From Hydrolagus affinis (taxonomy: Eukaryota), in contig JAAILG010002313.1 of NCBI GenBank assembly GCA_012026655.1, positions 1 through 55,808 of the forward strand: a stretch of 55,808 nt of DNA, in the 5' to 3' direction. Made by a program: the position numbers and the translations under genes. Within the stretch, counting starts at the first letter, position 1. Every line of letters begins with the position of its first letter. Positions 2,646 to 52,350 of the stretch are shown one piece after another. Under the pieces are notes generated by a model that searched no databases, had not been told where the DNA came from, and saw nothing but the letters and a program-made list of their open reading frames with translations.

Positions 2646-4249
2646 TTCTGTGGAGGCGCACTCAGGTCTGCTGTGAGGAAATTGAAATGTTGTATTGGAT
2701 TGTGAAGCAGGGAATCATATTCTGAGACTGGAATTCAGACATGTTTTTGGAAAAGAGTAGATTGGCCTTAAACACTCTGGAAAAAGATACATTTCCTGGT
2801 GTCTGTCCTGAAATCGTGTTTTGCAATCTGAACCACAACTGATCTGGAAACCCTCACAAGGTGGAAAAAAAGTAGAAAATGTATCTTTGTGCAAACACCG
2901 GTGGCCTTTACTTCACCTGGTGACTGAAAGCCTCTCTACCTCCATAAAATTGCTTTCTTCGACTGTTCATAGTAGAATGTGGCTGTTGATTTCCAAATGT
3001 CAGATACTGGGAATAGTTAAAGTGAAAGCTCTTTGAACTAGTAATGGTGTTTAATTGGAAATTCCTGGATTAATGATTGCAGTGAACTGAGACAAAGCTG
3101 CCTGACGGTTTCCCAGTAATTTACCAGGTTAGAGTCATCCTTAAACAGTCTCTTATTAGTAAATGATAGTTTATAATCTATTATTAATCATCTTAAGTAA
3201 TAAAAAAGCAAAACCTTTTTAGTTGCCTTGTGATGGAGAGGGAGCAGCAATGTTTGTTTTCTGCATTAACCTGTACTTGTATTTCCAAGGGATTAAACAT
3301 TTCTGCGCCCGCCCCATATAATTTAATCAGTTAATGGTGCCATTGTGAATTAATCTGTGTATTGTTTGTGACAGACTTGTGTCGTTGTGATTCTCTTGCC
3401 TTTCTGTTCATTAAACATATCTAGAATTTAACAACAATCAGATCTATCATTCACAACAACATGCCTTTTTAACAGAAAAATGACCCAGCACTGATGTCCT
3501 CACTGCCTATACTGATAAGTAAGTGATTCAGTGGTGAAATTGACTGTTTAATCCAGGGTTTTGTTGTAGATACAATATTTCAAATCCCTTTTGGACAAAG
3601 TGCCATCACCATTAGAAAATGATCCTAACAATTGGCATATTGATGTCTCTGAGTTAATAAAAACTGATGTTTCAAAATACAAAAACACTCTGGCTTAAAG
3701 ACTTTTACAAGATCTTATTAAAAATTTAGAACATGGAGAGGCAAACAAAACCTCAATGGTTGCTCTTTACGAGACTATTTTTCCAGCTGTATTTATAAAC
3801 AATCTGAGTGTAGAAGACATTCTGATTGAAAAATCGCATTTAAGGTCAGCTTTAACTGAACTCTGAAAGCATTAGATTTCGCTCAGTCTGGGATTGGTCC
3901 CAACGTATCATCTTTAAATCAATGGGTAGGTCCCTCTTTGCTACTCTTCTAGCTCAAACATCGATTGAATGGCACAAACAAAAACTCAGACTCTCCTGAT
4001 CACATTATATATCTGCTAGGAAATCAATACGGAAATTTTAAAATAAAAGGAAAGTACGCCTCACAGCTGAATGAAATCCTATCTGAACTGGAGTGAGATG
4101 CTCACAAAGACAGGGAGTAAAGAGCCCTGAAAGTAGCGCAATTCGATGCGCAATGTCCAACCCTACTAGCACTAAAATGTGGGCAGCTGCACGGAAGAGT
4201 TGGAAACTTGGACATGTTTCACAAAGGATTAACTAAATTGACACAAACA

Positions 4250-4312
4250 AAACCAACAACAAAATTACACTTGTATAGTGCCTTTCACGTTGGGAGGACG
4301 TGCTGAAGACGG
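4250..4312 (-). mobile_element. L2 LINE extreme 3' end
   Basis: Reverse complement acgtcctcccaacgtgaaaggcactatacaagtgtaattttgttg matches the L2 3' end at 31650-31709. Confidence 0.8.
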
Positions 4313-5527: not shown

Positions 5528-7627
5528 ATCTACCACTTGGAAGCAGTGCAGGTGTAACTGGATTGCTATATGTGTTTTATAACAAAACAGGTACAAACTC
5601 ATATCATGATAGATACTGATGAGACACTGCTCCAGATAGAGGGAGAAAAATTAAGATGAGTTCCCGTCAGCTACTCTCTTCGTTTCAGGTCAGGCCCACT
5701 AAAAAATAAAATGGAAAGGCTTCCAAAAACATGCAAAATGTTAATATTTTAAAATGTGAAAATACATTAAAGAGATTGGCACTAGGTATTGGCATGCACC
5801 TCACGGCAGATCATTGCAAGTTAATTGCCTGTGCAGTAATTCTACCTCCACTTGAAGAATCCAGTTTTTAAATTATCTGTCTATAAAATCAAGATACGTG
5901 TAAACCTGTTAGTGGTGACAACAGGTCATATTGCCATACTGTTCATGAAGATTACTATTGCATGAATGAGTAGATTATTTTGACAGTTCATTATCACTAG
6001 TACGCTGTTTTGTAGATGTGTGCGTGTGTGTGTGCATATCTGTCTGTCTCTCTCTCTCCCTCTCCGTATTTTTTTCGTATTATTTAACACTTGGGAAATA
6101 AGTTGTCTCAAAGCAGTCACACTGGAACAGCAGGCTCAAAGTGACGTCTAGTTTCTTTATCTCTTTGTGAGAAATTCTAATTATGTAAAGTAAAACTAGG
6201 ATTGGAAATGAAAATGTTCAGTCAGTTTAATTCATTGGCTATTGATCTTACATTGACTACTATAGTTAGGAAAGCAAATAAATTTTGATTTGATGATTTG
6301 ACTTGAAAATCAGACTGACATAAAATGCAGAAGTGATTCGAAGATGTTAAACTTTCCTTCAATTAAATATAAAGGCAGAATGGTTACTGTTAATTGATTT
6401 TTTACATAAATTACAGGTTATGAATAATCAAATATGGATTTTAATGTGATATGCAGTTTTGCTAATTGGTTGTATTCTAGTTCACACTGGCAGAGGGCAG
6501 CCTTGGGTAAAAGGTGTGTTGAACACAGCTTAATACTATATTGTGTAAGGCCCATGAACAGTACATCTGCGATGTTTGCCTTGCTCTGGACAAAGGTGTG
6601 AGCTCAGTGGCAAAAATGTTCATATCAACACCTAATGTGTACTAGTAAAATGTGGGAAATTTATTTATTTGTGTTCAGTTTAGCCATTGGTGACACCTGT
6701 CTTGGATGATCAGGAGTCTGGGATATGTAATGAGTATGACTGTGAGTAGCTGTGGTACGGATCCAGCTGATCTGATAACCACTGCTACAACCCTGACACA
6801 GGAATAAATCCAAGGACTCTGCAAAGGTTTTATACTTAATTTCTTTCTAGTCTTATGGTTATTGGCTGGTGCTAATAATCAATTTTATTGTCACTGGTGG
6901 AACCCCAAGAGATATGTTTTGCATTGTGAAATGTATTCCATATGCAGTTGTTAATTTGCTTCACAGTAAGACCTGACTTTAAAGAAGTCTTAGTCTTTTG
7001 ATTTGGGTTTGCTTTTCCAGTGCTTTAAGATGCACATAAAATGTGCTTGAGTTGATTGTATCTGGACTAAACATCCAGTCTAACAAAACCGCACGTCATA
7101 GATTGTGGATAGCAGTTTAAAGGGTCCAAAGACCTGTTTTAATCTATCTGTAAAATATTGTAGGAAGACCAGTTTGGCTGTTTAATCAATGTTGGTTGAA
7201 CATATATTATAGGAATCCAGAATGGTTAAATCAAATGAGTACTTATAATAAAAACTGAAAAGTGATTCAACTGGCAATTAATATTTGTGTTGATTATCGA
7301 CCAATAATCACTGAAAGTATCCAGTCAAAACACATTATTTAAATTCTGTGTGACACTCAAACAAAACATTTTGAATACAATGCCTCTTTTGAGAACTGTA
7401 CTCTACCTTCATCATGGCATTCAAGTGTATAAGAAGAATAAGAATAAGAGATAATTTTGTAATTTGAAGTTATAAGGACAGGCTCACTGGATTTACCTGA
7501 AATGTAGAAAAAAATAATTTCAGCTTCTTGAGAGTCCTTTAACTTTTACAGAACATGCAAGGCAAGCATAAAATTTACAAAACTATCAAATTGCTTTGTG
7601 GTTTCCTCTTTGTTGGCTTCAGCTCCT

Positions 7628-7679
7628 TGTGACGTCCTCCAGATGTGAAAAGAACAAATGTAATTTTGTTGTTGTTTTC
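7628..7679 (+). mobile_element. L2 extreme 3' end
   Basis: gacgtcctccagatgtgaaaag...aaatgtaattttgttgttgtt. Confidence 0.7.
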
Positions 7680-7789
7680 TGGGACAAATCAGGCCAGTGG
7701 CAAATCAGGCTCCACTCTACTTGTTTCTGGAGTGTATTATGTTCAAAGGCCAAAACATGCACCTTTTCATCTCAATTTTAACCTGTTCC

Positions 7790-7835
7790 TCAGTACATCC
7801 TCCTGATGTGAAAGAGCTATACAAATGTAATTTTA
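7790..7835 (+). mobile_element. L2 extreme 3' end (degenerate)
   Basis: acatcctcctgatgtgaaagagctatacaaatgtaatttt. Confidence 0.6.
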
Positions 7836-7837
7836 TA

Positions 7838-8098
7838 TTCTGAGGCAAAATCTTGGGCAAATATCCTTACAGCACATGCCTTATAATAATCCCTCAAGAA
7901 AAAAAACAATAAATTGGTCACTTCCACCCATGACTGTTTGTGGGACGCTGCTGTGCGCAATTGGATACCGTGTTTCGTCCACATATATACAGTCAATGCA
8001 CAAATATACAATCAATACAGAATATTCTGTGAAGCGCTTTGAGACATTTAGAAGATGTGAAAAGCGCTGTATCCAACGCAAGGATTATTATTATTATT
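7838..8098 (+). mobile_element. SINE, short variant, head truncated
   Basis: cttgggcaa (CORE-like), tgtgggacgctgctgtgcgcaattgg (Deu-like), tail tgtgaagcgctttgagac...caaggattattattatt. Confidence 0.9.
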
Positions 8099-8518
8099 CT
8101 TGTTCATTTAAGTTAATCCAGAGAAATACTCTTTAGTCTTGAGAGTTTGTTTCTGCAGTTGACTTGATTGATTTTCATTATTGGTCATTTAAAGTGATGA
8201 CATTGAAATAAATTGGTTTGGTTTGGAATTGTTGTTTCAAGTTGCAGTTGCTGATAAAGAGAAGAGAACAGCATTGATTATTGGAACCGGGCTTTGTCGT
8301 GATGCAGAACTTGAATTCGCAGTCATTGCTTCACACTGAAGCAACACCTTAAAGTTGGATAGAGCTAGATTGCAGCAACTAATCCCCAAAAACCAAGTGT
8401 GGAGGGGCTTTCTGATGCACTTACATGGCGTAAAAAACAGATTTGCTTTGTGATCTGAAGAAGAATCAGCACATACCAATATTTCAAAGAAATCATAACA
8501 CCCGAATAGTAGAAATAT

Positions 8519-8824
8519 TGTGGAGTCCTATAGCTCAGTGGTTAGAGCATGAACCTCACAAACGAGAGACTTGGGTTCAGTTACTGGCGGGGTGAAACCT
8601 TAGGCAAGTTTCCTTACTCCACATGTCTGATAATAATCCCTCAAGAAAAAAAATGGTTCCTCAATCCAGGACTATTTGTGGGATACTGCTGTGAGCAATT
8701 GGCTGCTGTGTTTCACCCACAAATATACAATCAATTCACTTTACATTATATTCTGTGAAGCGCTTTGAGACGTCTAGAAGACGTGAAAAGCACTGTATCA
8801 AATGCAAGGATCATTATTAATATT
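8519..8824 (+). mobile_element. Full-length tRNA-derived SINE, short variant (tRNA head, partial CORE-like, Deu-like, L2-like tail)
   Basis: A-box tagctcagtgg, B-box-like ggttcagttac, Deu-like tgggatactgctgtgagcaattggctgc, 3' stem-loop and (att)n tail; AATATTGT occurs at both ends (8514-8521, 8819-8826), a possible TSD. Confidence 0.92.
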
Positions 8825-13377: not shown

Positions 13378-13430
13378 AACAACAATAACAAATTGGATTT
13401 ATAAAGTGCCCTTCACATTGAGAGGATGAA
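13378..13430 (-). mobile_element. L2-type 3' tail remnant
   Basis: aacaataacaaattggatttataaagtgcccttcacattgagaggatg resembles the reverse L2 tail. Confidence 0.55.
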
Positions 13431-14442
13431 ACATGTTTTGATGCTAATTCTTGCTACTCAGGGATGCCAATGCACAGGAATTTCCATTTAGGTGGGCTGC
13501 ACGTAACTCTCAGTTTGCTTTGGATCCCCTTAAGCAGGTGATGGGTTTCACATGTGTCAGATACCTTGCTGATTTACAAAACGGATTAGCACACCTTGCA
13601 TCACTGAAGACTGAAACAACTTTGTACTTTATAATTTACAAAGTGGATCTACATGAGACTGAGGATTAAATTATAGAGCAAGTTAGAAGCAGCAGCCACA
13701 AACACGGACAGTTTGATTGTTGATAACATAATGAATCACCCCCAATGAAGTATAGGACTTGTGGTAAACCACGCCAAATTACAGTCCTAATTTCAATCAA
13801 GTCTAAGACATCTATTCACATGCAATAGGACCTTGACTTTAAGCACTACCTGGGGTCTTGTGACCTTTCATCAATGAATATAGATGAGTGAAGTGTTGCC
13901 TTAACTGACAGTTCCACGTACTGTACTTTGACATCATTGTAATCTCCTCTCTGCATTGCTTAAGACCTGTATCCATGTGGCATTGTAACTGATAGTTGTA
14001 CAGGTCTAAATGCTGCAAGGCCAGGCAGTACATCCATCTAACTCTAACCTCAAATGGTTGTGGCAATATTCCAATGGATAGTGACGGTATGGAGAAGTAA
14101 ACACAGCTGATGGGTCTAAAGTTATTTGGTTCATTGACTTCAATCTGAAAAGCTATTCCCTGCTTTGACTCTTATTTTTATTTCAAATCAAATTTGATCC
14201 AAACTCTTGCCACCCTGTAATTGGTTTCAACAAGATAAATGAATATATTGTAACGGGTCTCCATGACACTTAATAAAATGCCAATATGTCAATGAAATGA
14301 TGGCTGGAAGCAAATGAGATAGTTTATGAATCATTCCTTGAATCATACTACATTCAGTATGTGTTACTTTGTACAGAAATCATTTGTTGGTAAAATTCTG
14401 GCTTCTTTATAAAACAAAAGGCTGCAGTATGTAGGTTGTTTT

Positions 14443-17129: not shown

Positions 17130-17256
17130 CATTAATCTCCATTGAAACCCATTTAAGAACCAGCTTGATGCTCTAATGGGAAGATGATAGGGTGGATATT
17201 CTGGAAAGTTGAGATCAAATGGGCCGAAGTGTTTTCTTCATCATTATTAAGTTGTG
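17130..17256 (+). mobile_element. CR1 3' end fragment
   Basis: catttaagaaccagcttgatg (FK..LD) then gagatcaaatgggccgaagtgttttcttcatc, similar to 2530-2625. Confidence 0.6.
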
Positions 17257-18735: not shown

Positions 18736-19267
18736 TAATAATAACAAACACTTTTTATTGTAAAAGAATCTGATGGATCATGAAAGAAGCGTTGTAAAAA
18801 CAAAGCACCAGTACCTTCTTAACCCCTCTTAATATATGTGCTCTCATAATGAAGTAAGGAAAATAATCTTGTTGCATTTTTGCACCCAAATCAATATTTG
18901 TGTGCAACTTAAGAAGTAAACCATATGTCTGTAAGTTCATGGGGGAAGGGTTAAAGCTACAGCCCCATTAATTATGCTTCTGTGTTCATTTCAGTGTGAA
19001 ATTTACACCTTTCTGTATTGGGGCTTTTTATTTGGGGTATTTTTATATATTTTTAGAAATACATTTTTATAAAAAATATATTATAACAACATGAATTGTT
19101 TTTATTTGGCAGGGGTTTTGTGTCGAAACATTTCCTGCTCATAGAAACCAACCGTACTGTTCCATACATATATATATATTCAGAGGGTCAATATGTAGTA
19201 GAGATCAGGATCTGGAATCCTGATGGATTCTTACTGCTGCCCACCCTCATAATCCACCTTACATCTC

Positions 19268-19334
19268 AACAACAACAATAACTTCGATTTATATAGCGCC
19301 CTCCACGCTGGGCGGCGTCTCAGAGCGCTTCACA
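19268..19334 (-). mobile_element. 3' end of a third L2-type retroposon (distinct tail variant)
   Basis: Reverse complement tgtgaagcgctctgagacgccgcccagcgtggagggcgctatataaatcgaagttattgttgttgttg; CpGs intact. Confidence 0.8.
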
Positions 19335-21432
19335 ATACAGTACAAAACCATACAATTATCTTAGACATACAGCACAAGTAGATACACATCTAAGATGATT
19401 ATAGGCACTGTCAAGTACTAATGGATGGTAAGGCTTTCTGATCCTCGTATCTTAAAATTGCTCTTGCCTTTCTGAAATGTGGGTGGGAAACATTGTACCT
19501 GTATAACACACAGTGCAGCTGAGACACCAAATATTTGCCTATGGATATGGATGGTTGAATTTCCGCAGGTCAGTTGTTGATTCCTGATGAATGACCCAGT
19601 GGTGCTTTGTCCTGTTGATAAAACTGGGGAAGTTACTCATTATCCATCAATGTCATCCTCCACCTTAATCAGCAGTAGGAAATGCACTCACTCAGTTCAC
19701 TTAGGCAGTGATCTCCATTTCTGATCTTTTTGTGTACTTATATCATGATGGGTGGGAGGAGGGAAGTGGGCAATCTCTGTCTTTAAGATGCATTAAGTTA
19801 CCACTGGGATTTGGAAATAATGGACTTTAAAAGCAAATCTCTGCTTAATCCAGGTTTACTGAAGTTGCACTAAATCACCTGAGAGACTGCACTGTAGTGG
19901 CTGCTATAGGCAGGTGGGCTGTTTGCCTCTTCTATTCTCTAATCTACTGTAGTTATGGGAAAGCTCTCTTTATAATGGCAATTGATTTAGGGAAGAACCA
20001 AAATTGGGCTTTAAATTCATGTTTATTCTTTCCCCTTTCTCGGAACAATGTAAACCTGATACTGAGTAAAACTTTCACATTGTTATTCAGCTTCAATGAA
20101 TAAGATGGATTTGAGCTGTTTAGATTTCATGAAAAATATTTTCCTTATCCTGTGTAAAGACTATAATCAATATCATATGGAAATTGAATGTTTATGCATG
20201 AGCCATCCTCTACTTGTGCAAATGATGCAGCTATTAAAGAATAATACCTCCTTGTATTGGCAACACAGTTGGGTATGATCTTTAAGTGCTGTTTTCTCTG
20301 TTATGATGCGTAAGCAAATTGTCCTACACCAGAATTAACACTGATACATACATACCCCTTACAATACCACAGCAAATTGCTGGCTTAATTTTCCATCTAA
20401 TTCATTGCAAATGAAGCATGTAGTTTGCAAAACTTTCTTTTATGTTATCACCTATACAATTGATATTTGATTAAGTCCCTGCACTTGACTTTAATTATAG
20501 AAAGCTAGTGAAAATTAAGCATTGTCAAGGATTTGCTTAAGTGTTTCGAAAAATCTAAACCATTTTACTGATCATACTTCTAAAAATGCTGTGACTGCAC
20601 TAATGACTGTTTCATAACTGCAAACCATCATGTGTATGCTTACTCATGAACTAATGCCCATATTGGACAGAATATGTTACTGTTTATGCAAGCAGATTCT
20701 ACAGAAAGGTAAGGCTATAATTTTCCTGTATCTTTTTGCATTCCTCTGTTTGATTTTGAGTAAATTGGGTGGACAAAATAAACAAAAAATGCTGAAGGGC
20801 AGTTGGAGACTTTCAGATTCCACTATCAGAAAAAAAGACTATTTATTGACTGTACTTGTACTTAATACAGGTACTTGTTTTCCCACAGACATCTGTAGCT
20901 TTTTACAAGCCCATGTTCAAATAGCAACTTGTCAATAAAGAAATCTTAGAATCGGGTTTAATGTACTGGAAGAGATGCATTACATCTTTTGGTTTGGAAT
21001 AAAAGGTGGACAGAAGTTATTTTAAGTGTTACACAATAGAGCAGAGTTACTGCTATATGACTATTTCTGGTCAGTAATGTGTGGATTTGAGCTCAGTCAC
21101 TGTAAATGCAATTTCTTTGCAAGTACAATTTGCAACATCACAATGATGACAGTACTTGAAAGCCATGCTTATTTTGTAAATCCTTCCTGTGTAACGCAAT
21201 CTTCCCTGAGACTCATGTTTACAGCCTGACTGAGTCTGAACATCTATGGTTGAAGTTTGAATTTATGTGTCTTTGTTCTGTTGTTTTACACATTGAGGCT
21301 AAAAGAAACTGCTCTATTCTAAACATAAGGGTAAATCTCCATTCAGTGGTAAGTTTCCAACAACATTAACATTAGCAGCAACAGCTTGCATTTATAATTA
21401 AGTTTAGATGACTTTAAATTGTTTTGGGAGTC

Positions 21433-21800
21433 TAGCTGAGTGCTTGACACATGTAGAAACCCATTGCCCTGCTTAAGAATATCCAAACCAAATTCCAAGC
21501 ATCCCACCTATACATTATTATTCTCGAAATTTCAGAGGTAGGTTGTTGGAATGGAATGCGCACTCACTCCCTGTATGGAGGCATCCTGCTTCCTAATGCT
21601 GGAAATTAGGCACAAGTTGGTAAGAGCGAAGGCTTGGGGATCCCAGAGTGTGAGTCAAAATACTGCCTGAGTCTGACCAGTGAAAACCGCATAGCTTGCC
21701 ATTGCTTACAGGTGTCTGGCAAGCTTTCCCGTTGCTTGTCCAGCTAGGAACACCCGATCCATTAGAGCTTTGGCTTACAGGATAAACAGATGCTGAGTTG
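21433..21800. repeat. Unidentified dispersed structured repeat, copy A
   Basis: Collinear with 51972-52350; identical 22-nt (tgcttaagaatatccaaaccaa) and 23-nt (aaaaccgcatagcttgccattgc) blocks. Confidence 0.9.
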
Positions 21801-22258
21801 CATAATACCCAGCCCCCAGTTAGTGGTCTGCCTTTCCAGGTCTTGCTGATGAGCCAGGTTGGCTGTGTTGTCATCCGCAGTGCCCTGGAATTCTGTGGGC
21901 CTGCCTGGCTCAGAAACTGGATTTCCGAGACCGCCACAGTGGCCTAGCTTGATTCCGATATTCAATTGCCACGCAAGTTACCTTGGAGCCAGTTCAGCTC
22001 CATGGAGACTCTGTGGATTACTGTGATTTCTCTTCATAAATGCAGATCTTAAAGTTTGTTGCATTTTCTCATATTTTGGGATTCATAACAATTTTCATTT
22101 CTCAGTGGTTTGGAAATGCTGCTCTTAATAAAGGCATTTGCTACAATTTGATTTGCACACAGCTGTGGTTTCTCTCAGATTCAATTTCCCGATATCCTCT
22201 TAGTAGCCATCCTGTATTTTCCCAGACAGAATCATGGTAAAGTTTTAAAAAATATATA

Positions 22259-22462: not shown

Positions 22463-22991
22463 AATCATGGTGTGTGACACAGAGGGTGGTGTGGTGGGTG
22501 GGGGATGTGCAGAAGGTGGTGTGGTGGGTGACATGGAGGGTGGGGAGTGGTGTGCAAAAGGTGGTGTGGTGAGTGACACAGAGGGTGGGGGGAGGTGTGC
22601 AGAAGGTGGTATGGTGGGTGACACGGAGGGTTGGGGGGTGGTGCAGAAGGTGGTGTGTTGACATGGGGATAGGGGGAGTAAGTTTGGGAGCATTAGCTGC
22701 CTGGATCTACAGACGTAGAGAGACACAGACACAGAGAGAGAGAGGAATCAACAGAGATTTCCCTTAATCCTAAGAGAGAAGCGACATCTCGCTGATTGAT
22801 TGCGACATCGCAAGCAGGTCCTAGCGCCAGACACTAGAGCGAAACTGGTTGATGCAACTGGGACCTAGCGCCAAATGCAATGATGGTTTAAGTAATAACC
22901 ATTGTGTGGTTAGCAAGGGTTGTTGCATTTAGAAAACCGTGGGTAAGTCAGTTTAGCGGTTGACGAGGCCGTGGTTGGGGCAGGGTACCTG
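22259..22991. mobile_element. Non-autonomous Tc1/mariner-superfamily (Tigger/pogo-like) MITE, complete
   Basis: ~23-bp TIRs CAGGTATCCCTCCCCAACCACGG and CCGTGGTTGGGGCAGGGTACCTG; TA on both sides (22257-22258, 22992-22993); no transposase ORF. Confidence 0.88.
22438..22660. repeat. (GA)n followed by a G-rich ~40-bp minisatellite inside the MITE
   Basis: About 4-5 imperfect units of ggtggtgtggtgggtgacacagagggtggggaggtgtgcagaa. Confidence 0.9.
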
Positions 22992-31239: not shown

Positions 31240-31760
31240 CTAAATTGTTTAATCCACTGGAAATAAGGATATCGGAAGGGGAGGCAATAGAGGTGCTTAA
31301 AATAAAAGTGAAATATTTTCCTTTAGTTAGGGTAAGGGGACAATTGGTTCAAGATTGTTAGCTAAAGAATGTCAAACAACATTGCTGGAAAGTTGGATTA
31401 ATAAAAAAGAAGTTGCTTTTAAGAAGCTAATCGGAGGCCGGGCCTTCAGTTTCTCCGCTCCCACAATTCTATCCCCCAATCCCTTCGTCTCGTTTCTTCC
31501 CTTTCCTCTTTCAAGGCCGGTTTGAAGACTTTCCTCTTTGACCGTGCCTTTTGTTCCACCCCGAATTCTTCAACCTCCCATTCGTGTTTCACCCCCGCCC
31601 AAACACTCCCCTCCCAGCTCGGGTCATACTCCCCCTGTGCAGCGCCTTGGGACGTCCTCCCGACGTGAAAGGCGCTCTAGAAATGTAATTTGTTGTTGTT
31701 GTTGTTGTTAATAGTGGCACAGCCATGTGGGCAATCATCTGTGCTAACAAATTCTATGTT
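31240..31760 (+). mobile_element. Decayed CR1 3' end interrupted by a younger L2
   Basis: atagaggtgcttaaaat ~ IEV.KI and a TRGH-like decayed segment before the L2; aaattctatgtt CR1-type terminus after it. Confidence 0.45.
31431..31709 (+). mobile_element. Young 5'-truncated L2 LINE: ORF2 C-terminus, 3' UTR and (GTT)n tail
   Basis: Translates GGRAFSFSAPT / SIPQSLRLVSSLSSFKAGLKTFLFDRAF (L2 C-terminal motif, small frameshift); CpG-rich; 3' stem-loop; (gtt)n tail. Confidence 0.93.
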
Positions 31761-34640: not shown

Positions 34641-35314
34641 TCTGTTCAGAAAAAAATACACCCGTAAAGTTCGGGAGTTTGCATTTCCACATCTGTAGTG
34701 TATTAACAATGAAAATATTAATTTTCTATTTAAACGCTATCATGCTCTAGTTAATAAAATCCTGAGGCTTCCGATTTCTGATCACAACGCAATCTATCTT
34801 AGTGATTGATGAAAGAGTCAAGTTCACTGAAGCAAACAGTGAAACTCTAAACACCTCATTAATCCCTGGACCTGTGTTTCAGTAAATGAAAACCAATATT
34901 AAATGTGAAAAAAATACATGTTTGTGGAATTAGAGTTTTCTGTCACAAATGAAAATATAGGGCCCTGATGTTATTTCCTTCAAGGATCAGCACTATTACT
35001 AGAAATATTAATTCAATCTGCAAATCATTTGTAAAAGTGGTGATATTTTCAACTTTGCAGAGTCTTCTGCAAGTCAAATAATTTAATGATGATTACCAGT
35101 GTCATGAACATCTGTTTGAAAGAATATGTCTTATATATGTGCTGACATTGCAGTTTGTTCTGTCCTTAGAAAACTACATGAGCAATATCCCCGAGTCACG
35201 ATGAATAGGGAATAGGAATACTGTACTAGGATTAATAAATGAAATTATAAGGTATAGAAGGGTAAAGGACATTGACAGTCAAAAAGAATGGAGGTGCAAC
35301 AGAGAATAGAGTGG

Positions 35315-35696
35315 TAGTAATAATAAGCCTTGCATTTGATTTGGTATTTTATCATGTCTTTGAGACATCTCCAAAGCACTTCACAGAATATTTGGTAAAG
35401 TGAATTGATTGTATATTTTTTGGGCACTACACAGCAGCCAATTGCACACAGCAGTGTCCCACAACCAGTCATGAATTGAGTGACTAAATTATTAGTATTT
35501 TATCTTTTTGTTAGAAGAAATTATTACTCTCAGAAAAGCGATCCTCCAATTGACTAACAACCAGGTTCCTACTTACAGCTCGGTAAGCCGAGTCTTGTGG
35601 AGTAAGGAAACTTGTCCAACATTTTGCCCAGGAATCGACTCAGGTCTTCTTGCTTGTGAGACGAGTGCTCTAATAACTAAGCTACAGTATTCCACA
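35315..35696 (-). mobile_element. Full-length SINE, long variant
   Basis: Head ends tccaca; contains the extra segment (ccaattgactaacaaccaggttcctacttacagctcggtaag), Deu-like block and tail. Confidence 0.92.
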
Positions 35697-35704
35697 AATT
35701 AAAT

Positions 35705-36483: not shown

Positions 36484-36705
36484 ATTATAATAATATTTGC
36501 ATTCAATATATTTCCTTTCACATCCAGAGTACTTTACAAAGTGCTTCAACAACAACAAATTACACTTGTGTATAGTGTGTTTCATGTCAGGAGGATGCCC
36601 CAAGGGCGTTGGCTTCTGTAAAGCCTTGTAAGTAAGCTTGGCAGCCAATTGGCATACAGCAGTGTTCCATAAACAGCCATGAAGTGAATGACCATTTTCA
36701 TCCCG
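36484..36705 (-). mobile_element. SINE 3' half with an L2 3' end (36547-36610) inserted into it
   Basis: SINE tail 36484-36546, then caacaacaaattacacttgtgtatag...ggaggatgccc, then Deu-like gcagccaattggcatacagcagtgttcca. Confidence 0.7.
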
Positions 36706-36724
36706 AGAATTATTGACTGGGACA

Positions 36725-36775
36725 CACAACAACAAAATTACACTTGTATAGCACTTCACATGTCAGGAGGACCAC
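36725..36775 (-). mobile_element. L2 extreme 3' end
   Basis: caacaacaaaattacacttgtatagcacttcacatgtcaggaggac. Confidence 0.78.
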
Positions 36776-41199: not shown

Positions 41200-41322
41200 A
41201 ACAACAACAACAACAAAATTACACTTGTATAGCATCTTTCACGTCAGGAGCACGTCCAAGGTGCTGGATAGTCATTGTTTCAGACCCGAGCTGGGGACGA
41301 GGAGGGTGGAAGAAAAGGGGGG
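41200..41322 (-). mobile_element. L2 3' UTR and tail
   Basis: (aac)n, tail stem-loop, and gacccgagctggg matching 31612-31625 in reverse. Confidence 0.85.
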
Positions 41323-41871
41323 ATTCATCCAAGTGCACAGCTGTGTTGCACAGCTTAAATTTATACAATCCTTAGGCAGAATGTCTCTGCCATGGATTTA
41401 CACCTATTATTTTGCATTTAGTAAGCTATTGATCTCATCCACACTGACTGAGTTTAGAGTGGTGTATGTCAGACTGCTGAGGTCGATGCCCCAATGTGGC
41501 AATGATCACAAGCTTGAAGTGATAACTCGTCTCCATTTGCATCATCAGAGGATGTTGAGTGACCAGGAGTGAGGTTCACTAGCTTCCAAATGATACAATT
41601 GTGCAGTTTTGACACCAAAACAACATGTTGTAAGCTTCCATAATACAGATTGTTTAAAAAGAATATTTTATGTTGGTTTTGCATCTGGTTTACATTTGAG
41701 AAACTTTCCAAAACAGCTGCCTGAATGCTAGATTGGTCCCAAACTAAAATTCAGAGGCACTGAGATCGTCAGAAAGTGGGAGTGATAATCAGTACTATGG
41801 GTCTATGAAACTAATCTATGGGATAAAGATCCAGGACATTGAAATGGTTAATCGTCGTGAGCAAAGATAAT

Positions 41872-41934
41872 TGGACGTCCTCCCGACGTGAAAGGCGCTC
41901 TATAAATGTAATTTGTTGTTGTTGTTGTTGTTGT
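41872..41934 (+). mobile_element. Young L2 extreme 3' end (~60 bp)
   Basis: ggacgtcctcccgacgtgaaaggcgctctataaatgtaattt(gtt)n differs from the 31650-31709 copy by one substitution. Confidence 0.93.
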
Positions 41935-42299
41935 ACTTTATTTCTGAGGGAATGTCTGCCTTTTCTATTTGTCGTTTACACCAACAACTGGGAGCTGAAG
42001 AACTAGCTTTTAAGTATTGAAGTGTTTGCATTTAGATAGGAGTTGACATAATTGGCACAATGATAGCTGCACAGACCTTTCCAGCTAACGGACGCCTTGT
42101 ATGTGGTTGACCTCGGGAGGCGAGAGTGTTAGAATGATTAGCCACGGTGAGGAGAATTGAGTTGCCTCGGGACAGGGTTAATGGAAGGTTAACCTGCAGT
42201 AGGCCCGTGCTCCGTCGAGTCAAATTATGGGACCAGTGATGGCTGTGGATGCTGTCTTAGAAGCTGTGCACAACAACATATCACTGCTGTACATCCTCC

Positions 42300-42870
42300 G
42301 AGTTCTGTGCATCACCATATTTTGTTGAAGCCATTTTTAAACATACTTTCTCTTTGATTCCAAGACCTTATTTCCATGGCCTTAAGTGTCGTATTTTCTA
42401 ATGAGTTCCATGAGCTTCCAATCCCATGGCCTCAAGGGTGCCCCGGCATTCAGCACCATGCAACTTCTGAGGAACGCATGCTGATCCCACAAGCTGGAAG
42501 AGCCACACCATGGCTTGTGCGATCAGCATGCATTGCTCAGGAACTACACAGGAACTACAGTGCTGTGCGCCAGTGGCCCAATAAGACCATGGGTACTTCA
42601 CTAGATGGCCTTGCATGATGTTTTCCTGGACTGTCCGTTGCTTCTTATGGGAGATTGGAATAAGTCATACCCAGAACTTCAGAGGAGGTGCAAATCTCTT
42701 TGAAAATCTCTGATTCTATTCCATGGTTTGGCAATTATATGGCATCGGAGTGGAGTACAGAGTAGAACAGTAATCAATCATTGCTTGTGAATGTCTTGTC
42801 ATGTCCTATATTCTTGAATTGTGTGCATCAGTATCGCTGGGAAACTTCAGACCACTGGCCAGTCATCTCC
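42300..42870 (+). mobile_element. Possible decayed L1/Tx1-clade ORF2 C-terminal region
   Basis: catgatgttttcctggactgtccg...tgg = HDVFLDCP..W, similar to the zf-RVT H.F..CP....W motif; higher GC; frames broken. Confidence 0.3.
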
Positions 42871-44053
42871 TGTGTCAATAGGGCAGCCTTTGAAATTCTA
42901 TGGTGAGTGCTGACTCTGAGCCACAGGGTTGGAGTGATCAGTCTACCTTGTGCTACAAGTGTTTATGCCAAAGTACTCCATGCCACGTGAAGGATATCGC
43001 TGACCATAAAGCCTGGGACTGAGTCTGTGCAATGATTGACAAAGGGATTTCGACAACTGAGGATGTATGAGAATGCATCCATACTGTATGCATGTATTTG
43101 TGTGCATGTGTGTATATATACAAATTATGATGCTGTTTGATGTAGGAGAGCCTTGCCACTCCAAGGTTTGCATTACATCATATTTATAAGCCAAATTGAA
43201 AATTCTGCAAGAGTGCAAGGCACCACAAGCAGGTTCAGGCAGATTCCAAACAAAAATATAAAGATTAAAGCTAGATTTGGTTTACAAATGCTGACAGCTC
43301 CTTTCAATTTTATTTGGAGCTACAGTTTTTAATTCATTCAGTGAAGCATAAACAAAATATATTATTTGGGTGCTGGGAATGTCACTAATTTTTAACTTGG
43401 CTCTCGCTTAAGAGATTTGTCAATGTACAAACTCCAGCTCATGTAACCCATATTTAATTATACAAACAACATTCTGAATTTTCATGCCATGCATGTGGTG
43501 CAGAGAACATTGTAAGGGCGGAGTGAAATATGATACGTTTCCATTCTGTGCAGCATTAATAATTCCCCTGAGGCATCAGCAAATTTATTAAGCCAAACCA
43601 CTAATGAAAATCCTTCCAGTTTTAACCTCTCGTCATCTCCCAGCATATATATATATGTAATGTTCATGTATGCTAGTGTTTTTTTTGCTTCATAAAAGAG
43701 ATAAGCAGAATGCTTCAACATGATTTTAAACATGCACTTAGAGCCTGTGGAAACTAAGTTCAGTTTGTCACTAAAACTGACTTCTGTTAGGGATTGACCT
43801 TTCACTACTGCTGATTGATCTTAGAATTGACATATCCAGGATATTGGCTGTGATGGTGATGCAGTATTGGATGCATTTCACAAGTGTAGCTACTTAGCAA
43901 ATGCTTCATTCACTTGTCTTAGATCATGATCAACTCTCCAGCCATCAAAGTCCGTTCATTGCTGGATTGCAGAGTAGCTTCTTGGAGGAAGAAAGCTTTA
44001 TTTAGCCCACTGGGAACTAGGTTGAGATGGTTGCAATCCCTTTTTCTACTGAT

Positions 44054-44084
44054 GGGTGTCTGACATGTGTGGAAACCCATTACC
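44054..44084. repeat. Short end fragment of the structured repeat, copy C
   Basis: gggtgtctgacatgtgtggaaacccattacc versus gggtgtctgacacctgcggaaacccatta at 51977. Confidence 0.75.
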
Positions 44085-44354
44085 AGAAAAGAGGATAAAA
44101 AAATAAGGTACAGTTAACAATGGGGGAAATAATACATCTAATTTGATACGATTTAAAAAAAACATAAGGTGAAATTAAGTAGTATTTTAAAAGTTGTTTA
44201 ACCTTACTTTAATTTTTATTTGAATCATTTAGGTTTGATAGGTGAGTAGCTATATTACTATTATATGTGTTGGGTTCAGCATCACTGTGTGTGAACTGAA
44301 AATGAGCACACACAGGCTTTTTTTTTAAGATTCTTGAGCTGAATCAGTCCATTA

Positions 44355-44420
44355 ACAATACAATACGATTCATAAATTTATATAGTGTCTTTCATGTTGG
44401 CAGGACATCCGAAAGTGCTA
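44355..44420 (-). mobile_element. L2-type tail remnant
   Basis: atttatatagtgtctttcatgttggcaggacatccgaaagtgct. Confidence 0.55.
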
Positions 44421-45039
44421 GTGCTGGTCTGTAGATATAGTGTTTGTGTTCAGGTAAGACGGATGAGCAAAATATTTCATTCTCCAGTCTCTCAGCAGAT
44501 CTGATGAGAACGGCAGGTGAGTTGCCAAGGTTGGCTGTTTTCAGTAGGTGTTGATATCCTCAATTAATTCTCTAGCCCTGTCTGTCATTCCCACTCCCCT
44601 ATACCCTCTCAAGTAAATTTATTTCCTCTTTGTCTTAAAAATGCACCTGTTCTCTGCTGAGCAGGAAGTTTCCTGGCACCAGGTAACATAGAGGCAATCT
44701 GGAGTGTGACTTATGTTCCATTGCTGCTGCTTTTGCTGCTTAAATCAAGATTTATAGGTCAGCTCGCAAAACCCTTGACTGACTGTTATGAGGAACCATG
44801 TTACTGAAGTACTGAATCATCCCAAAGCACAAATATAAACAACAGTTTACTGAATCCTGAAATCACTCCTTGTAACAGGTAATTCTCTATGCTGCTAGCA
44901 CAAGCTGATGTGTTCGATAAACTTCCTTAAAGTTACTCTACTTTTTACAGAAATTCATATGCTCAAAAATATTCATAAGTAGTACATATTCTCATAAAAC
45001 TTTCGTTAATCAAAGACCAAACCTTTGGAATGACTAAGA

Positions 45040-45148
45040 CAGCATGATAAGAGGGCAAAGGGACACTGGTTCAGGGTTGTGAAGGGTAATTTTTTAGCAG
45101 AGGCTGGTTTGATGAGTTGAATGGCCTCCTCCCATTCCTATGTTCTTA
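45040..45148 (+). mobile_element. CR1 3' end with internal deletion
   Basis: gggacactggttcagggttgtgaagggtaa ~ GH.F.L.KG, then gttgaatggcctcctcccattcctatgttctta. Confidence 0.65.
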
Positions 45149-46069
45149 AATAACTGGACATCCAACTGTGGGAATATAAGAATTCACATATAAATCATGC
45201 ATAAAGATACAGATCTATACAAAATGCACAACAAATGCTGAAATTATACCAATTTTGCTGCCTGGTGAATGGGTGGTAAATCGCTTTGGGTTCTGCTCAT
45301 TCACAGTCCAAAGATGACTCTTGCGTGGTCTAATGGACAAATGTCAGTAAAGTTTGTAATATCATTAAATAAGCAGTCACACGCTCAGCCCCTTAACAAC
45401 ATAAAAAAACCTAACCACTAATTCTTTCTCAAATGGTATAATTGTTTCACAGGATAAGGTGCACCTGCGTTCCACAGAACATCTTAAGGAGAATATTTGA
45501 AACCCGTAGCATCAGTTATCATCAGCACTCATATCTTGAAACCAACCTTGTCATTCTTATCCTGGATTCAAGCACAAGATTGGTCCGCTGCTCTCTGAGA
45601 GGTACTGCGTTCCATCAAGCTACGCTGTTTCTTAATTGGCTTGTCTGTGTTTTATTCTTGCGTTATTTATTGGGATTTGGCTAAACCAGCTGGTGATTTT
45701 TATGAGGATCTGTTTCAATTAACAGGCGCTAATTCCCAGAGGTGCCATACAAGACCATGAGGAATGGCTGTGCATTCACAGGGAATTGATGGAGGAACTT
45801 CAGGATGTTAAAATACAGAAGAGATTGAAACGATAGTATATTTTAGAGGATAATTATTTTACTTAGTATCACCGAGGGATTATGATACAGGTTTCTGTGG
45901 GTTTCAGTTTTAGACATTGTAAAATTCAGATATTTACAAAGCCAATATATAGAGCAAATGCTTCCGGCCAATGTGAGGATTCTCATGTGACTCGATGGTA
46001 ACATGGATATTTCCATTTCCTCTCCTTTACTCCTATCACATTGTCTCATCTGATACCTGAACTAAGACT

Positions 46070-46175
46070 ACTTTTTTTTTTGCAGCTTCATCACATCTCC
46101 AGCTTCATCCCTGACTCATGCCAATGCTGCTGAAACCCTCATTTGTGCTTCAGCTCCACCACCGACAAGCTCTAT
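46070..46175 (+). mobile_element. Decayed L2 ORF2 fragment
   Basis: gctgctgaaaccctcatttgtgct = AAETLICA, similar to the L2 AETLIHAF motif. Confidence 0.55.
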
Positions 46176-46868
46176 AATCTTTTTCATGCAAAGAGCGGTA
46201 TAAAAGTATTAGTTGTAGTTAGCTTGACTTTGACCTCTGCAGGTTTGGAAAGATGCATTCATTGTCTTTTCATACAACATTTGGATATAACATGATTGTG
46301 AAGTAAAAAGGCTCACAAATTTGTCTGTGAAGTGGAGTAAAAATAAAATAGTATATTTTGAAAAAAAGCAAATCATATGAGATTGGGTCCCAATGGAGAA
46401 GGATATTATTCAGATAGATAAATAATACACCATCTGTCTATCTGTGTGGAACAGTGAAATCCATGTGCAGATCAAGCAAAAATGATTTCAGGTTCACATT
46501 ATTCCAGTAATGGCAGCGCTGTCTGAGGAACATGCATCTTAAGCAGCATCCACAGTCCACTTTGCTCCTGGAGTGCATTCAGGATGAGGAATGTGAATTG
46601 GTTCAGGGAACAGATGTTCTCCCAAAATGAATGGTCCCTTTGTCTTGGAATCCTTTGAAATGCTTTTATATATTACAATGAAATTCAACTCTACTTGTGC
46701 ATGAAACCAAATTGCTGGTTGTACTGGAAAAATCATAGATGTAATGTTTGGCATGAACAGAACTGACATAATCTGTTGCATGTCCAATATAACATGGATT
46801 TGAATCATTTCCCGTGGTTTCCTCTCCCTTCAAGTTCTGCTCTCAGTTATGGTGCTCTTGTCAGATGA

Positions 46869-46968
46869 NNNNNNNNNNNNNNNNNNNNNNNNNNNNNNNN
46901 NNNNNNNNNNNNNNNNNNNNNNNNNNNNNNNNNNNNNNNNNNNNNNNNNNNNNNNNNNNNNNNNNNNN
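46869..46968. other. Assembly gap (100 N)
   Basis: Run of 100 N, probably a placeholder of unknown true size. Confidence 0.99.
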
Positions 46969-49592
46969 CCAGAGTGAAAACAGGGAGGAAATGATAAAAT
47001 CCTTTACAAAGTGGAAAAGGTTAACAATGGCCATGATCTGTACAAATTAAAATATGTGACACTGTTGTTGCCCAATGGACAAACACGCTGACATTTGTTG
47101 AGATAGGTTGTATCCCTCCAATGTCACCCAGCACTATAACTCAATCATCACTTATTCTGTTTTAATACCATAAGTGTTATCTGGGAAACTGTCATTATAC
47201 TTTTCACAAGCCTGTGCTCTTGTCATTGGAACCTAAATGTATAAAAGGTTGTATGAAATATGGGGTATGCATAGAAATGGCTACGGCTAGTTATGAAGTG
47301 TAATGAATATCATCACTTGCAAGGTTGGCCATGATTTCCTTGTGATTTGGTCCCTAGTGAGTTATCTGGTTGGTCTCACTTGAAGAGTAGCATATCATTT
47401 CTCATTGCTCACATAGCCTTGGTTTAGTGTGATTATTTATAGTGTTATGACATGTCTTGTAACCAGAGGAGAAAAAGTAACTTGAGAAGCGATGCATTAA
47501 AGCCATGCAGTGACACTGCAGGTTGAATTATTTTGTTTCACTTTCTCACCACCTGACTTGCAAGGCACCATTTACAACAAAATGGAGAAGTGTAAAGATA
47601 ATTTAGATGAATATGGAGGTCACTGTGTGCAACAAATGGAAACAATATAATTTAACAAGCGGACTGATTGCACAAGTGGCAACATTGCCAGAGCATTGTG
47701 AGGTTGGGTAGCTCATTTGCAAAATAGCCACATTTTTGTTATGTTCAAATTCATGATTTTGAAAAAGTTAAAAAAGAATATGATTTCATAGTTTTATGTC
47801 AGGACATGTGTCTGTTATAGGACAATATGTGATAGATGGTAGGACAGACTTTTTAAATTTGTTTCACTAACACAGTGATCCATTACTCTGTGTGGCTGTG
47901 CGGGTGGGTGGGGTGTGGATGGAGGGACCATGAATGTAGAGACAATGTACCCTGTGTGACATACTGTACTGCACTAGAGTGGGTCACTGGGACAATTAGC
48001 ACATCTGTTTAAATTGGTCTTGCAATTACACACTCTTGTGAGAGATTACAGTTTACGAAAGGGGACCCTCTTTTTGTCTACATGGCTCTAAATTGGTACT
48101 TTGTTAACTGAACCAATTGATGAGGTTTGACTTTTCAGATGTATTGATAGTTTGCTGGAGGAGGGTGGATGCTGGAAGAAGAGTTGGTCCTCTTCAGTAT
48201 TCATTTTCTTTAATTGATTTTTTTATTGCTACAGCGCTTCCTTTCAAATGTCCGGTGATTTGACTGCTCTCTCATAAATCACAAAGAGTCTCACAACCTG
48301 TCTAAAGAAACTGAACATAACAACATTATTTCTTGCTCTTATAAGCGTTTTTTTTAAAAAATGCAAAAATGCTTAGTTTTACAGTGGTAGGCAGTTTTTA
48401 TTAGGTGTTTTAAATTAAAAGTAATTTTCTGTCTGACAGACGTCTCTCAGCCCATTTTGTCACATTAATCTCAAAGCTCTATATAATTGTATCTTGTATT
48501 AACTGCTCCCTTTCTTACCTTTGCGAATGGATACCTGGTAGCTGTCCATTAAAATTGTGTTGATCTACAACTCATTTATCATAAACTGTTGGTTTAACTA
48601 AGTTGGTTAACATTTCACATTCCTTTTGTCCTGAACTGTCCAATTATTCTAACTAGAAGTGATTCTAACTAGTCTGTGGGAGTGAGTGACTGTAATAATC
48701 CCCAAAAAGCAGATGCTCAACAGGTAAAATTGATTATATGTACAATTAACAGCAACATCCTGCATTCACATCAATTCTGTATGCAGTGGAGTAAGTCTGA
48801 TAAGAGAAGAGTTTGTGCAAATATTGGCCTTAGTTGTGGTGGACTGATGAAAGCCAGGCACCTTTTGTCAAGAGAGAAGAAAATCGGAGGACACTTACTT
48901 TCAAGCTTCTCGTACACATCTCATGGTGACTGTCTGTAGGGCAGCATTGGCAGCAGCAAGGTAATGTCTGATTGGGACAGTCTGTTGTGGGGGTAGACCA
49001 AAGAGAAAAGATTGTCACCCTCTCACAAGGAAGGGAAGAATCACTTTAAACACTGACTGTTTAAGAAATGTCCATCCTGGACCATTCGGTTATCTTTTGA
49101 CACTCTACTGTGTGACAGCCTCATTCTGTTCGGTCCTGTCATGCACATCAGTCACTTATCACCCCTGGAAAATTGCTTGTGCTTTCAACGTACCCTCACA
49201 ATTCTTCCTGCTGTGACTGTTTTACATTAAAGGCATTAATCCTGAGACTGGCAGCAGCTCCAGGGAATACTAGCCATTTTTCTAGGCTTTCAGTCCACAC
49301 ATTGTGACATTGAAACAAACGCTAATATTTACAGTAATAAAACAACTCGTATGTCATTATTTATCATGGCAATAACTAAATGTAAATATCTGCATGATTA
49401 ATGCACAGAAACCTCTTTTTCTAACTCTCTGTTTACTTTAATCTTCATTACTGATAAGTAAATCCTATGTAATCTTTTTTTCTTAGAAATCTAGCAATTG
49501 TTTTTACTATGTTTTCCCTCTGATTGGTGGTATTCATTCTCATGTGTGACCTTTGCCAATGCGTATCAGTGCCTATTTAACCACAAAGGGTA

Positions 49593-49856
49593 AATAATAA
49601 TCATAATGATGATGATCAGTTTTGCATTTGATATGATGCCATTCATTTTTGGAAGGACATCTCAAAGTGCTTCACAAAATTTACTGCAGTGTATATTTTG
49701 AAGACAAACAGAGTAGCCAATATGCATATAGAAAGGTCCCACAAACAGCCATGAAACGAATGACTGGTGATGGTGAATTGTTGGCCAGCAAATAGGGAGA
49801 AAGTCCTTTCAATTTTTTGAACAGTGCCAAGGTATCGTTCATATCCAGCTGAACAT
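49593..49856 (-). mobile_element. Older DeuSINE copy (Deu domain and tail)
   Basis: Tail ttgcatttgatatg...gacatctcaaagtgcttcaca; Deu block gccaatatgc...cccacaaacagc; ttggccag...gggagaaa...agtgccaagg...tccagctgaaca. Confidence 0.75.
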
Positions 49857-50437
49857 GATGTCACTCTTCACCGAATTAAAGGGGTTTTGTCTGTACAAAT
49901 AATTTCACATTTGCTCAAGAGCTCTGGGATTCAAAGGTAAGGATCTTCTTATTGAGGGCTGAGAGCTCAGCTCTTGATCATGGCTGTATCTAATTAGTTG
50001 CCACCTACTTTTTCAGCACTTGGTGTGATTTGTGTTTGTGTTTAAACAATAGGCGGTGTTATTAGGGGTCTATTGACTCGGAAGAGTTGGTAAACTATTT
50101 GCATTCAAATGTGATTGAAGCTGAAAGTGCGCTGGGCTACCAACTGCATACCAACTAACAGTCAGGTTAGTCCACAACTCACTATTGACGTAACATTTTG
50201 TTAAGAATATTCCTGCTTAGAAAAATTATTTGTAAATTTGTAGTTTGAACACAGGTGGAGTGCAAGGCGTGATCTGATTATTGTCCCTGGGATGCTGTAC
50301 CTTTAAGATCTATGAGGGACTTGATGTAATATAAATGACTTATGTACGTAGTTTATTTTATTATTTTTGGGGGCGTCCAAAGATAAAGGCCAAGTACAGG
50401 GGCCCTCCCTCCCACCCGATTTTAGAATGTGTAATTC

Positions 50438-50778
50438 TAATAATAATAGTGGTCCTTGCATTTGATATAGCCTTATCATCTCGTTGAGACATTGCAAAGC
50501 GCTTCACAGAATATACTATAAAGTGAATTGACGGCTTATCCTGTGGGCGAAACCCAGCAGTCAATTGCACGCAGCAGTGTCCCACGAAGAGTCGTGGATT
50601 GAGTGACCACATTTTTTTTTGAAAGGATTATCAAAAGCGATCACCAATTGATTAACAACTAGGTACATACTTACTGCTAGGTAAACAGAGGCATGTGGAA
50701 TAAGGAAACATACCTAAGGTATTTAGGAATCGAAGGTTCACGGCGCGCTCTTCATCCAATATATCGCAAAACTCCATG
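50438..50778 (-). mobile_element. SINE, long variant, head degraded
   Basis: Tail, Deu-like block and extra segment actaggtacatacttactgctaggtaaacagaggcatgtgga are all present. Confidence 0.9.
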
Positions 50779-51971
50779 TACTATATTAACAGATGATTAA
50801 ACAGGGAGTAGAGGGTGCTGAAAATGATTTGTGCAGATACTGCACATGGCCCCCAAGTAATCGAGGAGTGGATGGGCTGTATGTTTCTTTTCCTTCATTC
50901 ACACCTCCTTATATCCATTTATATTGTTCCCAAGTACAGGCATTCCGAAAAAGGAGAGGTGTTTTTACTACTGCCACCAGATGTAAATCAGATTTGTCCT
51001 AATGGTTGCAAATGCCTGCTTTCGGTAATGGTCTGCATGGGAAATGCCTTGACTGCTGTTATGTGGGGTGTGAGGTTGTAAGCCAGTATTCCAGGACATA
51101 ATTGTGCTGGAATTGTACCCTCTCCCACTTGGATTTTGTGGCTGTCTGGTGATAACTTGGCAGCTCCAACGTGCTGCACTGTGTAATGTTAAAACAACAC
51201 AAGAATTGCTGCACTTGACCGCATGGTGAATTCCCATTTCTGTCACAGAGAGCCATTGAGTGAAAGCAGACGCTTCCACACAGAGAGGAAAAGTAGATTA
51301 AGTCATCTCCTCCCTCCTAGTGGCGGATGGAAAAATTAACATTCACAAGCAGCCTGGGGGAAGCAGGTGGGTAGAGGAGGAGGGCATAAAGAATAGGAAG
51401 GAGGAGATCATTCTGAATCTTTGGTAGGATTAGAATCTCACAGCTTGCAGAAATGTTTGGAGCTAAATCAAAGTATCGCCTGTGGTCTGTGCTATGCTTC
51501 TTAAATGGATAAATGATCAGGGGTTTAGGTCTGAGGAAAGTCAATCAAAGCTAAATGGCATAGAAAGAAGAGGTTAAAGTCTCCCCAAACAGCTGGTCTT
51601 TTTTTCCCTCTTATCATGTATTGCCTTTTATGAAATTATGAACCCCATCTTTGTATCTACTCATGGTGGCTGTAAGAAAATGGGTTTCATTGTAAATTCC
51701 ATGTAATTGCATCTTGTGAAATATGAGTATTTTTGTACAGCAATACACCATCTCCAGGGAGTTGGCAATGTGTTTGATTTCTCAAAGATATTATTACTGT
51801 ATTACAGACCACAATTCTATTACGTGTCCTCAGAATCCGATCTTCAGCACTGATTTAGATCAACTTCAAGGTTACGTTGGAAAACAAAAGGGTTGATCAA
51901 TTCATGTAAAGTCATTCAGCTCTGGCAATAAAACATTATCATTACTAGCAATTAATTAATTTATTTATGGT

Positions 51972-52350
51972 TAGCCGGGTGTCTGACACCTGCGGAAACC
52001 CATTACTGTACCATGCTTAAGAATATCCAAACCAAGCTGAGATTTGCATGCATTCCACCAACACAGGGAAATTCCAGAAATAGGTTGTTGGAGTGGAACG
52101 CACACTCTCTCCCTGGAGGGATGCAGCCTGCTTACCTAATTATGGAACATATTAGGTGCAGGTTGGCAAGAGCCAAGGCTGGGAGACCCCTGAGTGTACA
52201 TTGGGGGCATTGCCGGAATCAAACTAGCTAAAACCGCATAGCTTGCCATTGCCATTGATATTGCTGTATGGAAAGCTTTCCCATTGCTTGTTCAGCTTGT
52301 ACCACCTACCCATTAGGACTTTGGCTTGCAGCATTAACAGGAGCTGAGTG
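51972..52350. repeat. Unidentified dispersed structured repeat, copy B
   Basis: Collinear with 21433-21800 in the same orientation; multiple internal inverted repeats. Confidence 0.9.

Follow-up and report, generated by a model that had tools for sequence, protein, structure and literature searches.

An abundant dispersed repeat in Hydrolagus affinis with an RTE-like 3' end, very probably of non-LTR origin

Four copies of a dispersed element and the extent of its family

The window, by which we mean the whole 55,808-nucleotide stretch of Hydrolagus affinis DNA that was analysed (contig JAAILG010002313.1), contains four copies of one dispersed element. Copy A (21433–22011, minus strand) is the longest, and is defined by contig depth across 21424–22035, by the ends of paralogous sequences at 22002–22013 and by orthologs in organisms A, B and D. 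Copy B (51972–52357, minus strand) is 5'-truncated and measures ~385 bp; it was aligned to 52349, and its end near 52357 was placed by eye from the loose-end consensus. Copy C (44053–44084, minus strand) consists of the 3'-terminal 31 nt of the element followed by a short A run (nhmmer E 2e-4). The initial annotation had listed it as a short third copy with a similar left boundary, and it is indeed a 31-nt left-end piece (44053–44083). Copy D (13475–13571, plus strand) had not been reported before; it lies in the opposite orientation to A, B and C and retains the 3'-terminal ~100 nt with a weak A-rich tail (nhmmer match at 13475–13569, E 5e-13).

The relationship between the two long copies in the same orientation was readily reproduced. 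Copy A (21433–21798) and copy B (51972–52349) align by blastn at 72% over 388 columns (E 1e-54), and 281 of 357 ungapped columns are identical, with 45 transitions and 31 transversions at the others. The two identical blocks noted earlier are real, one of 23 nt and the other of 22 nt. By column permutation, the probability of a longest run of at least 23 nt is 0.15 and that of a second run of at least 22 nt is 0.012, and conservation between A and B is mildly uneven.

The size of ~370 bp originally given to the element had to be revised, as this is the portion retained by copy B. Paralogous contigs cross position 21800 (records 11 and 12 of run X13 and record 20 of run X7, the last with 25 differences, compared to 4 in the orthologous record 19 of the same run), and the joints in the contig alignment connect the two halves of the element in order. 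Paralogous contig pieces stop at 22002–22013, and depth beyond 22035 is that of single-copy sequence. Because paralogs cross 21800, end together near 22011 and depth drops there, we put copy A at ~580 bp (21433 to ~22011, minus strand), and it is probably near full length. No shared continuation at 22011 was seen among the best 24 of 1,810 loose ends, and this position may be the true 5' end of the family. A GC-rich 45-nt minisatellite (22496–22657, 3.7 copies) lies 500 bp from copy A and adjoins an AG microsatellite.

Sixteen DNA-type datasets from seven studies matched the stretch, and these derived from organisms A–D and a fish gut metagenome. Four runs were aligned onto 21100–22150 with a threshold of 80% likeness, which yielded 6,098 contigs from run X1, 4,536 from X7 and 9,339 from X13. 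Most aligned contigs are less than 90% alike, three fish species are represented, and the differences are mainly transitions. Depth in X1 ranges from 2,800 to 116,000 across 21424–22035 compared to ~30–60 in most flank bins. Depth is not copy number (a warning given by the tool itself), yet the contig counts by themselves suffice to establish thousands of copies. Contigs that bridge unique flank and element were present for organism A with 9 differences in 623, for organism B with 17 in 557 and for organism D with 39 in 347 and a further 17 gaps; therefore, the insertion of copy A is older than the split of these organisms.

Exact-motif scans for further copies gave 0 matches in viral sequences, 0 and 0 in metagenomes, and 0 and 32 in prokaryote genomes. 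The 32 prokaryote matches were rejected as chance occurrences (best nhmmer E 0.03).

The 3' end and signs of retroposition

The orientation of the element can be read from its left end. A consensus of 127 contigs from run X13 contains a long T-run ahead of position 21445 (agreement 0.59), after which the first bases of the element begin. Since a plus-strand T-run corresponds to a minus-strand poly(A) tail, the element reads on the minus strand. In copy A the decayed A-rich tail is at 21413–21425 (minus strand), recognised from its sequence and from the T-run of the family consensus, and copy B has an A-rich, ATAA-like tail at 51950–51968 (minus strand). The tails of C and D amount to 4–5 A. 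The earlier statement that the element has no LINE-like tail is contradicted by the consensus T-run and by the tail of copy B.

The 3' end is present in all four window copies, while their lengths are ~580, 385, 100 and 31 nt. A shared, tailed 3' end combined with variable 5' truncation is the footprint of target-primed reverse transcription. A search for target site duplications around the four old copies gave a best match of 11 of 16 positions in A, which is not significant (p 0.074); non-significant duplications are common among old copies. In line with the initial annotation, no tRNA head, TIR or ORF was found: ARAGORN and Rfam found no tRNA head (0 tRNAs by ARAGORN), no inverted repeat connects its two ends, and 0 Pfam families were found in all six frames. 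A Pfam scan of 42001–55808 likewise gave 0 families, and no partner LINE was seen there or in the element. High copy number, an A-tailed shared 3' end, 5' truncation and presence of the insertion in three species support one proposal of the initial annotation, namely an unclassified ancient repeat or RNA-based mobile element. We consider it very probable that the element falls within the non-LTR class.

The last 35 nt of the element resemble the 3' end of BovB/MAR1 RTE elements, as judged by a motif chosen post hoc. The sequence ATGGG-N10-GTCRGACAC is printed shortly before the tail in MAR1, BovA2 and BovB in the supplement of PMC5786205. This motif has 14 specified bases and was designed with both sequences in view; it has two matches in the window where 0.01 would be expected, and both are at the 3' terminus of a copy (B and C). 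It is thus exact in two of the four copies, and substitutions spoil the match in A, where the corresponding segment (21433–21465, minus strand) is decayed, and in D. The initial annotation had named a match to a known transposable element as a ground for refutation, and this short RTE-type 3' motif is the match that was seen. One RTE 5'-UTR motif gave a single match at 3 mismatches (0.49 expected) and a second gave 0; RTE 5' UTRs are diverse. A 5-bp stem-loop is possible at the 3' end of the family and is predicted in copy D, and it is not better than shuffles; the 3' ends of the copies have z scores of 0.90, 0.38, −0.95 and 0.51. Stringent LINEs recognise 3' stem-loops, which is demonstrated for L2 and not for RTE (PMC4176376).

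The 3' UTR of AviRTE is ~40 bp (PMC4844689). Since RTE 3' UTRs are short, the remainder of the element cannot be RTE 3' UTR if the tail is RTE-derived, and 580 non-coding nucleotides upstream of an RTE-like end fit a non-autonomous composite. Composites of this kind have already been described (PMC5786205). We lean towards the reading that the element is a dead non-autonomous non-LTR retroposon, discrete and head-less, that has an RTE-type tail and was copied in trans by an RTE-type LINE. A master copy would have been transcribed; as the search for Pol III boxes was negative, its transcription was likely by Pol II or by read-through. The LINE ORF2 protein would recognise the small 3'-terminal stem-loop beside the A tail, then nick the genome and copy the RNA into DNA starting at its 3' end (target-primed reverse transcription), and early termination would yield the 31-, 100- and 385-nt stubs seen as C, D and B.

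It is possible, though we doubt it, that the element instead belongs to an autonomous LINE (L1/Tx1, the CR1/L2 group or another) as its long 3' UTR and that copy A is 5'-truncated at 22011. Such an origin would leave the same tail and truncation pattern, and it would account for the absence of a small-RNA head and of RTE 5'-UTR motifs. However, paralogs end at 22002–22013 without a shared continuation among the best 24 of 1,810 loose ends, the terminal motif suggests RTE, whose 3' UTR is short, and the 5' part of the element is GC-rich and hairpin-rich.

The 5' domain, ribozyme-like motifs and RNA folding

The 5' part of the element was absent from the initial annotation. This domain (21801–22011, minus strand) is GC-rich (55%), contains several predicted hairpins and is the more folded part of the element (z −2.1). 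At gathering score, Rfam gave zero matches on any copy; at E ≤ 10 the matches were solely weak and unrelated (6, 2 and 5 rows), with no tRNA, 5S, 7SL, snRNA or ribozyme among them. One of these searches at E ≤ 10, that of 21780–22080, covers the one decayed copy of the head, and it too retrieved no tRNA, 5S, 7SL or snRNA. No Pol III A and B boxes in register and no CORE/Deu body were detected in the element. The tRNA-headed SINE family also present in the window does yield an Rfam tRNA match, so this way of finding a head can work here.

Judged by eye, the 5' domain bears some likeness to 5S rRNA, U1, LF-SINE and UCON3. These likenesses were rejected, as they are short, misspaced or on the wrong strand and have no Rfam support.

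These results make it unlikely that the element is a conventional SINE, in which a tRNA-, 5S- or snRNA-derived head has decayed past detection and is followed by a body and an RTE-like tail. Its size, abundance and tail are compatible with a SINE, RTE-tailed SINEs are known in coelacanth and hagfish (PMC5786205 and PMC7245038), and the head is available from a single decayed copy. Nevertheless, ARAGORN found 0 tRNAs, Rfam at E ≤ 10 had no small-RNA match in 21780–22080 though the other SINE in the window matches tRNA, and A and B boxes are not in register.

A further idea, which we regard as improbable, is that the 5' domain (21801–22011, minus strand) represents a new retroposon head, either an unrecognised small-RNA promoter or an undescribed self-cleaving ribozyme, that drove thousands of insertions via the RTE-type tail in a fish lineage that evolves slowly. 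Were this so, the import of the family would be greater, and its thousands of copies would ease covariation analysis. The transcription of non-autonomous LINE derivatives that lack a head is treated as an open question in the discussion of PMC5786205.

On the plus strand of the 5' domain, CTGATGA (21846) and GAAA (21913) flank a 6-bp stem in a hammerhead-like order. However, the core has 3 extra bases between the stem and GAAA, stem III cannot form, and the strand is opposite to the tail. None of the best 12 of 31 family indels deletes the 3 core bases. The arrangement as a whole (21838–21932, plus strand) has a possible 7-bp outer stem and a defective core. Hammerhead and HDV descriptors, which were built from consensus features, and the Rfam ribozyme models detected no intact hammerhead or HDV fold. 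A relaxed HDV descriptor gave 0 matches on minus strands and 1 on the plus strand of A, against a background of 0.2 per 660 nt. None of 10 TRF rows (period limit 500) overlaps any copy, and each of the four copies stands alone.

By definition, retrozymes are arranged in tandem and each of their units has a type I hammerhead (10.64898/2026.07.22.740005; PMC7229834), and certain RTEs carry 5' ribozymes (PMC5786205). The latter, together with the CTGATGA/GAAA arrangement and a 5' domain that folds better than shuffles, is what would recommend a ribozyme-based self-cleaving element (a retrozyme, a Penelope pseudo-LTR or an HDV-headed element). We nonetheless consider this very unlikely given the overlong core, missing stem III and wrong strand, the absence of a tandem array, the lack of HDV matches on the minus strand and empty Rfam ribozyme models. 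The earlier label of retrozyme-like is not supported, since there is no tandem array and no intact hammerhead or HDV fold.

The initial annotation also proposed that its span folds like a structured RNA. Over that whole span, on both strands, folding is indistinguishable from shuffles, with z scores of 0.21 and −0.13 for A and −0.43 and −1.47 for B. The three conserved stems that were described all exist, but the 9-bp stem is mismatched in B and none of the 21 pairs covaries: 19 are invariant, 2 are broken in one copy and 0 are compensatory. Changes on both sides were seen in none of the 30 named pairs and in 2 of the 88 pairs predicted by RNAalifold, a comparison of two sequences that has little power; covariation was limited to these two because the scans gave no further full copies. 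Identical stems in A and B are expected from descent. Stem positions differ at 5 of 60 sites and the other positions at 71 of 297 (Fisher p 0.006), a circular comparison in that the stems were picked from both copies.

Individual hairpins gave mixed values. Both A and the family consensus have the 9-bp hairpin (21693–21725) intact, and B has one mismatch in it; its z scores are −2.4 in A and −0.7 in B. Of 44 80-nt windows, 3 (each of them on the minus strand) scored below z −3, compared to 1 of 150 in the background. A predicted hairpin at 21480–21560 (minus strand) is common to A and B (52040–52110), with 80-nt window z scores of −3.4 and −3.2, respectively, and three one-sided changes preserve its pairing via G-U on the minus strand. 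Shifting the window brings its score in A from −3.4 to −1.0. We propose that these hairpins derive from the master RNA and are in the course of decay; nothing points to a function at this locus.

A single-cell poly(A) library of organism B supplied RNA reads, and 27% of this run was covered. The element was matched by 1,574 of 13,869,776 records (799 first and 775 second mates), with depth in both directions. A retrozyme would be expected to give abundant linear and circular RNAs. In this run, of a type unsuited to small or circular RNA, no read was 99% alike, none fell in the flanks and there was no pile-up of starts or ends. The reads fit passive transcription of other copies.

Taken with the folding results, these data leave little room for a multicopy functional non-coding RNA gene under structural selection, and we consider such a gene highly improbable. 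The less-changed stems (p 0.006, circular), the pair of long exact blocks (P 0.012) and the few 80-nt windows below z −3 would agree with one. In opposition, pairs changing on both sides number 0 of 30 and 2 of 88, whole-span z scores are near 0, most copies are fragments, and RNA reads come from both strands without pile-up. The initial annotation, which had raised this possibility, had itself named as grounds against it what was then found: no covariation in two copies and folding equal to shuffles. The size, copy number and lack of an ORF would suit a MITE (a non-autonomous DNA transposon) or a solo LTR, but this reading is largely refuted: no inverted repeat connects the ends, the truncation is polar and just one of the ends has an A-rich tail.

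Relation to described families and other repeats in the window

Read as a dead non-autonomous retroposon with an RTE-type tail, the element can be compared to several described groups, of which bipartite non-autonomous RTEs, WALLSI1A-like elements and the RTE-tailed SINEs of hagfish are the closest. Bipartite non-autonomous RTE elements (Bov-A, RTE-N1_Lch, RTE-N2_Lch, RTESINE1/2 and WALLSI3; PMC5786205) are likewise non-coding and headless and have a BovB/MAR1-like terminal motif. RTE-N1_Lch and RTE-N2_Lch are 262 and 286 bp (same source), whereas our element is about twice as long; the RTE 5'-UTR part of bipartite elements has no match above chance in it, and a partner LINE was not found in 42001–55808, so that the element is at most a candidate member of this group. 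WALLSI1 and WALLSI1A (387 and 610 bp; PMC5786205) are similar in size, with a 5' part of unknown origin and an RTE-type tail, and are built of an unknown head, an RTE 5' part and an RTE 3' part. They differ in being marsupial and in their type of RTE tail, as printed there.

The RTE-tailed tRNA, 5S and 7SL SINEs (MAR1, CoeSINE4/5 and SINE1-1_EBu; PMC5786205 and PMC7245038) are equally short, abundant and tail-dependent, and the end of MAR1 is the closest match to the element among those printed in PMC5786205. They differ in having a Pol III head and a CORE/Deu body, which were undetected in the element. Non-LTR retrozymes share with it the traits of a non-autonomous, non-coding animal element of a few hundred nucleotides (PMC7229834; 10.64898/2026.07.22.740005). 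However, they are tandem and have a type I hammerhead, whereas the element is dispersed, tailed and 5'-truncated and has no intact hammerhead.

Diagnostic strings of the element (0 of 6) were not present in the supplement of PMC5786205, and none occurred in that of PMC7245038. No description of the family was found in the literature, a result that says nothing on Repbase or Dfam entries. The family may already be named in Dfam or Repbase, and one this abundant is likely to be in some de novo repeat library already. Gar genomes contain many old inactive transposable elements (PMC12863190). The best reading of the element is one more old non-autonomous retroposon family, which is of little import; it could be used in repeat annotation and as a source of presence/absence markers among related fish.

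The window contains several other repeats. A second, more abundant family is a tRNA-headed SINE (Rfam tRNA 32.7 bits at 53516–53587), with copies at 8515–8824, 53507–53870 and 7848–8104 on the plus strand and at 35312–35697 and 50434–50723 on the minus strand. Its copies are ~79% identical, many additional 3' fragments are present, and we take its body and tail to resemble those of Deu-type SINEs such as AmnSINE1/SacSINE1. A third family occurs in both orientations as pieces of 50–100 nt (31613–31709, 41200–41295, 41871–41943 and 4231–4309), with further pieces at 36547–36772, 7620–7834, 19267–19334 and 13378–13426. Two of its members (31650–31709 and 41873–41932) are 98% identical, and the family likely represents the tails of another SINE or LINE. 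A 92-nt repeat is present in two copies (2531–2622 and 17151–17242; 78% identical), and 46869–46968 is an assembly gap of 100 N. Near the right end of the window, a CpG-rich 17-nt tandem repeat of palindromic character (55630–55682, 2.6 perfect copies) may mark the boundary of a DNA transposon.
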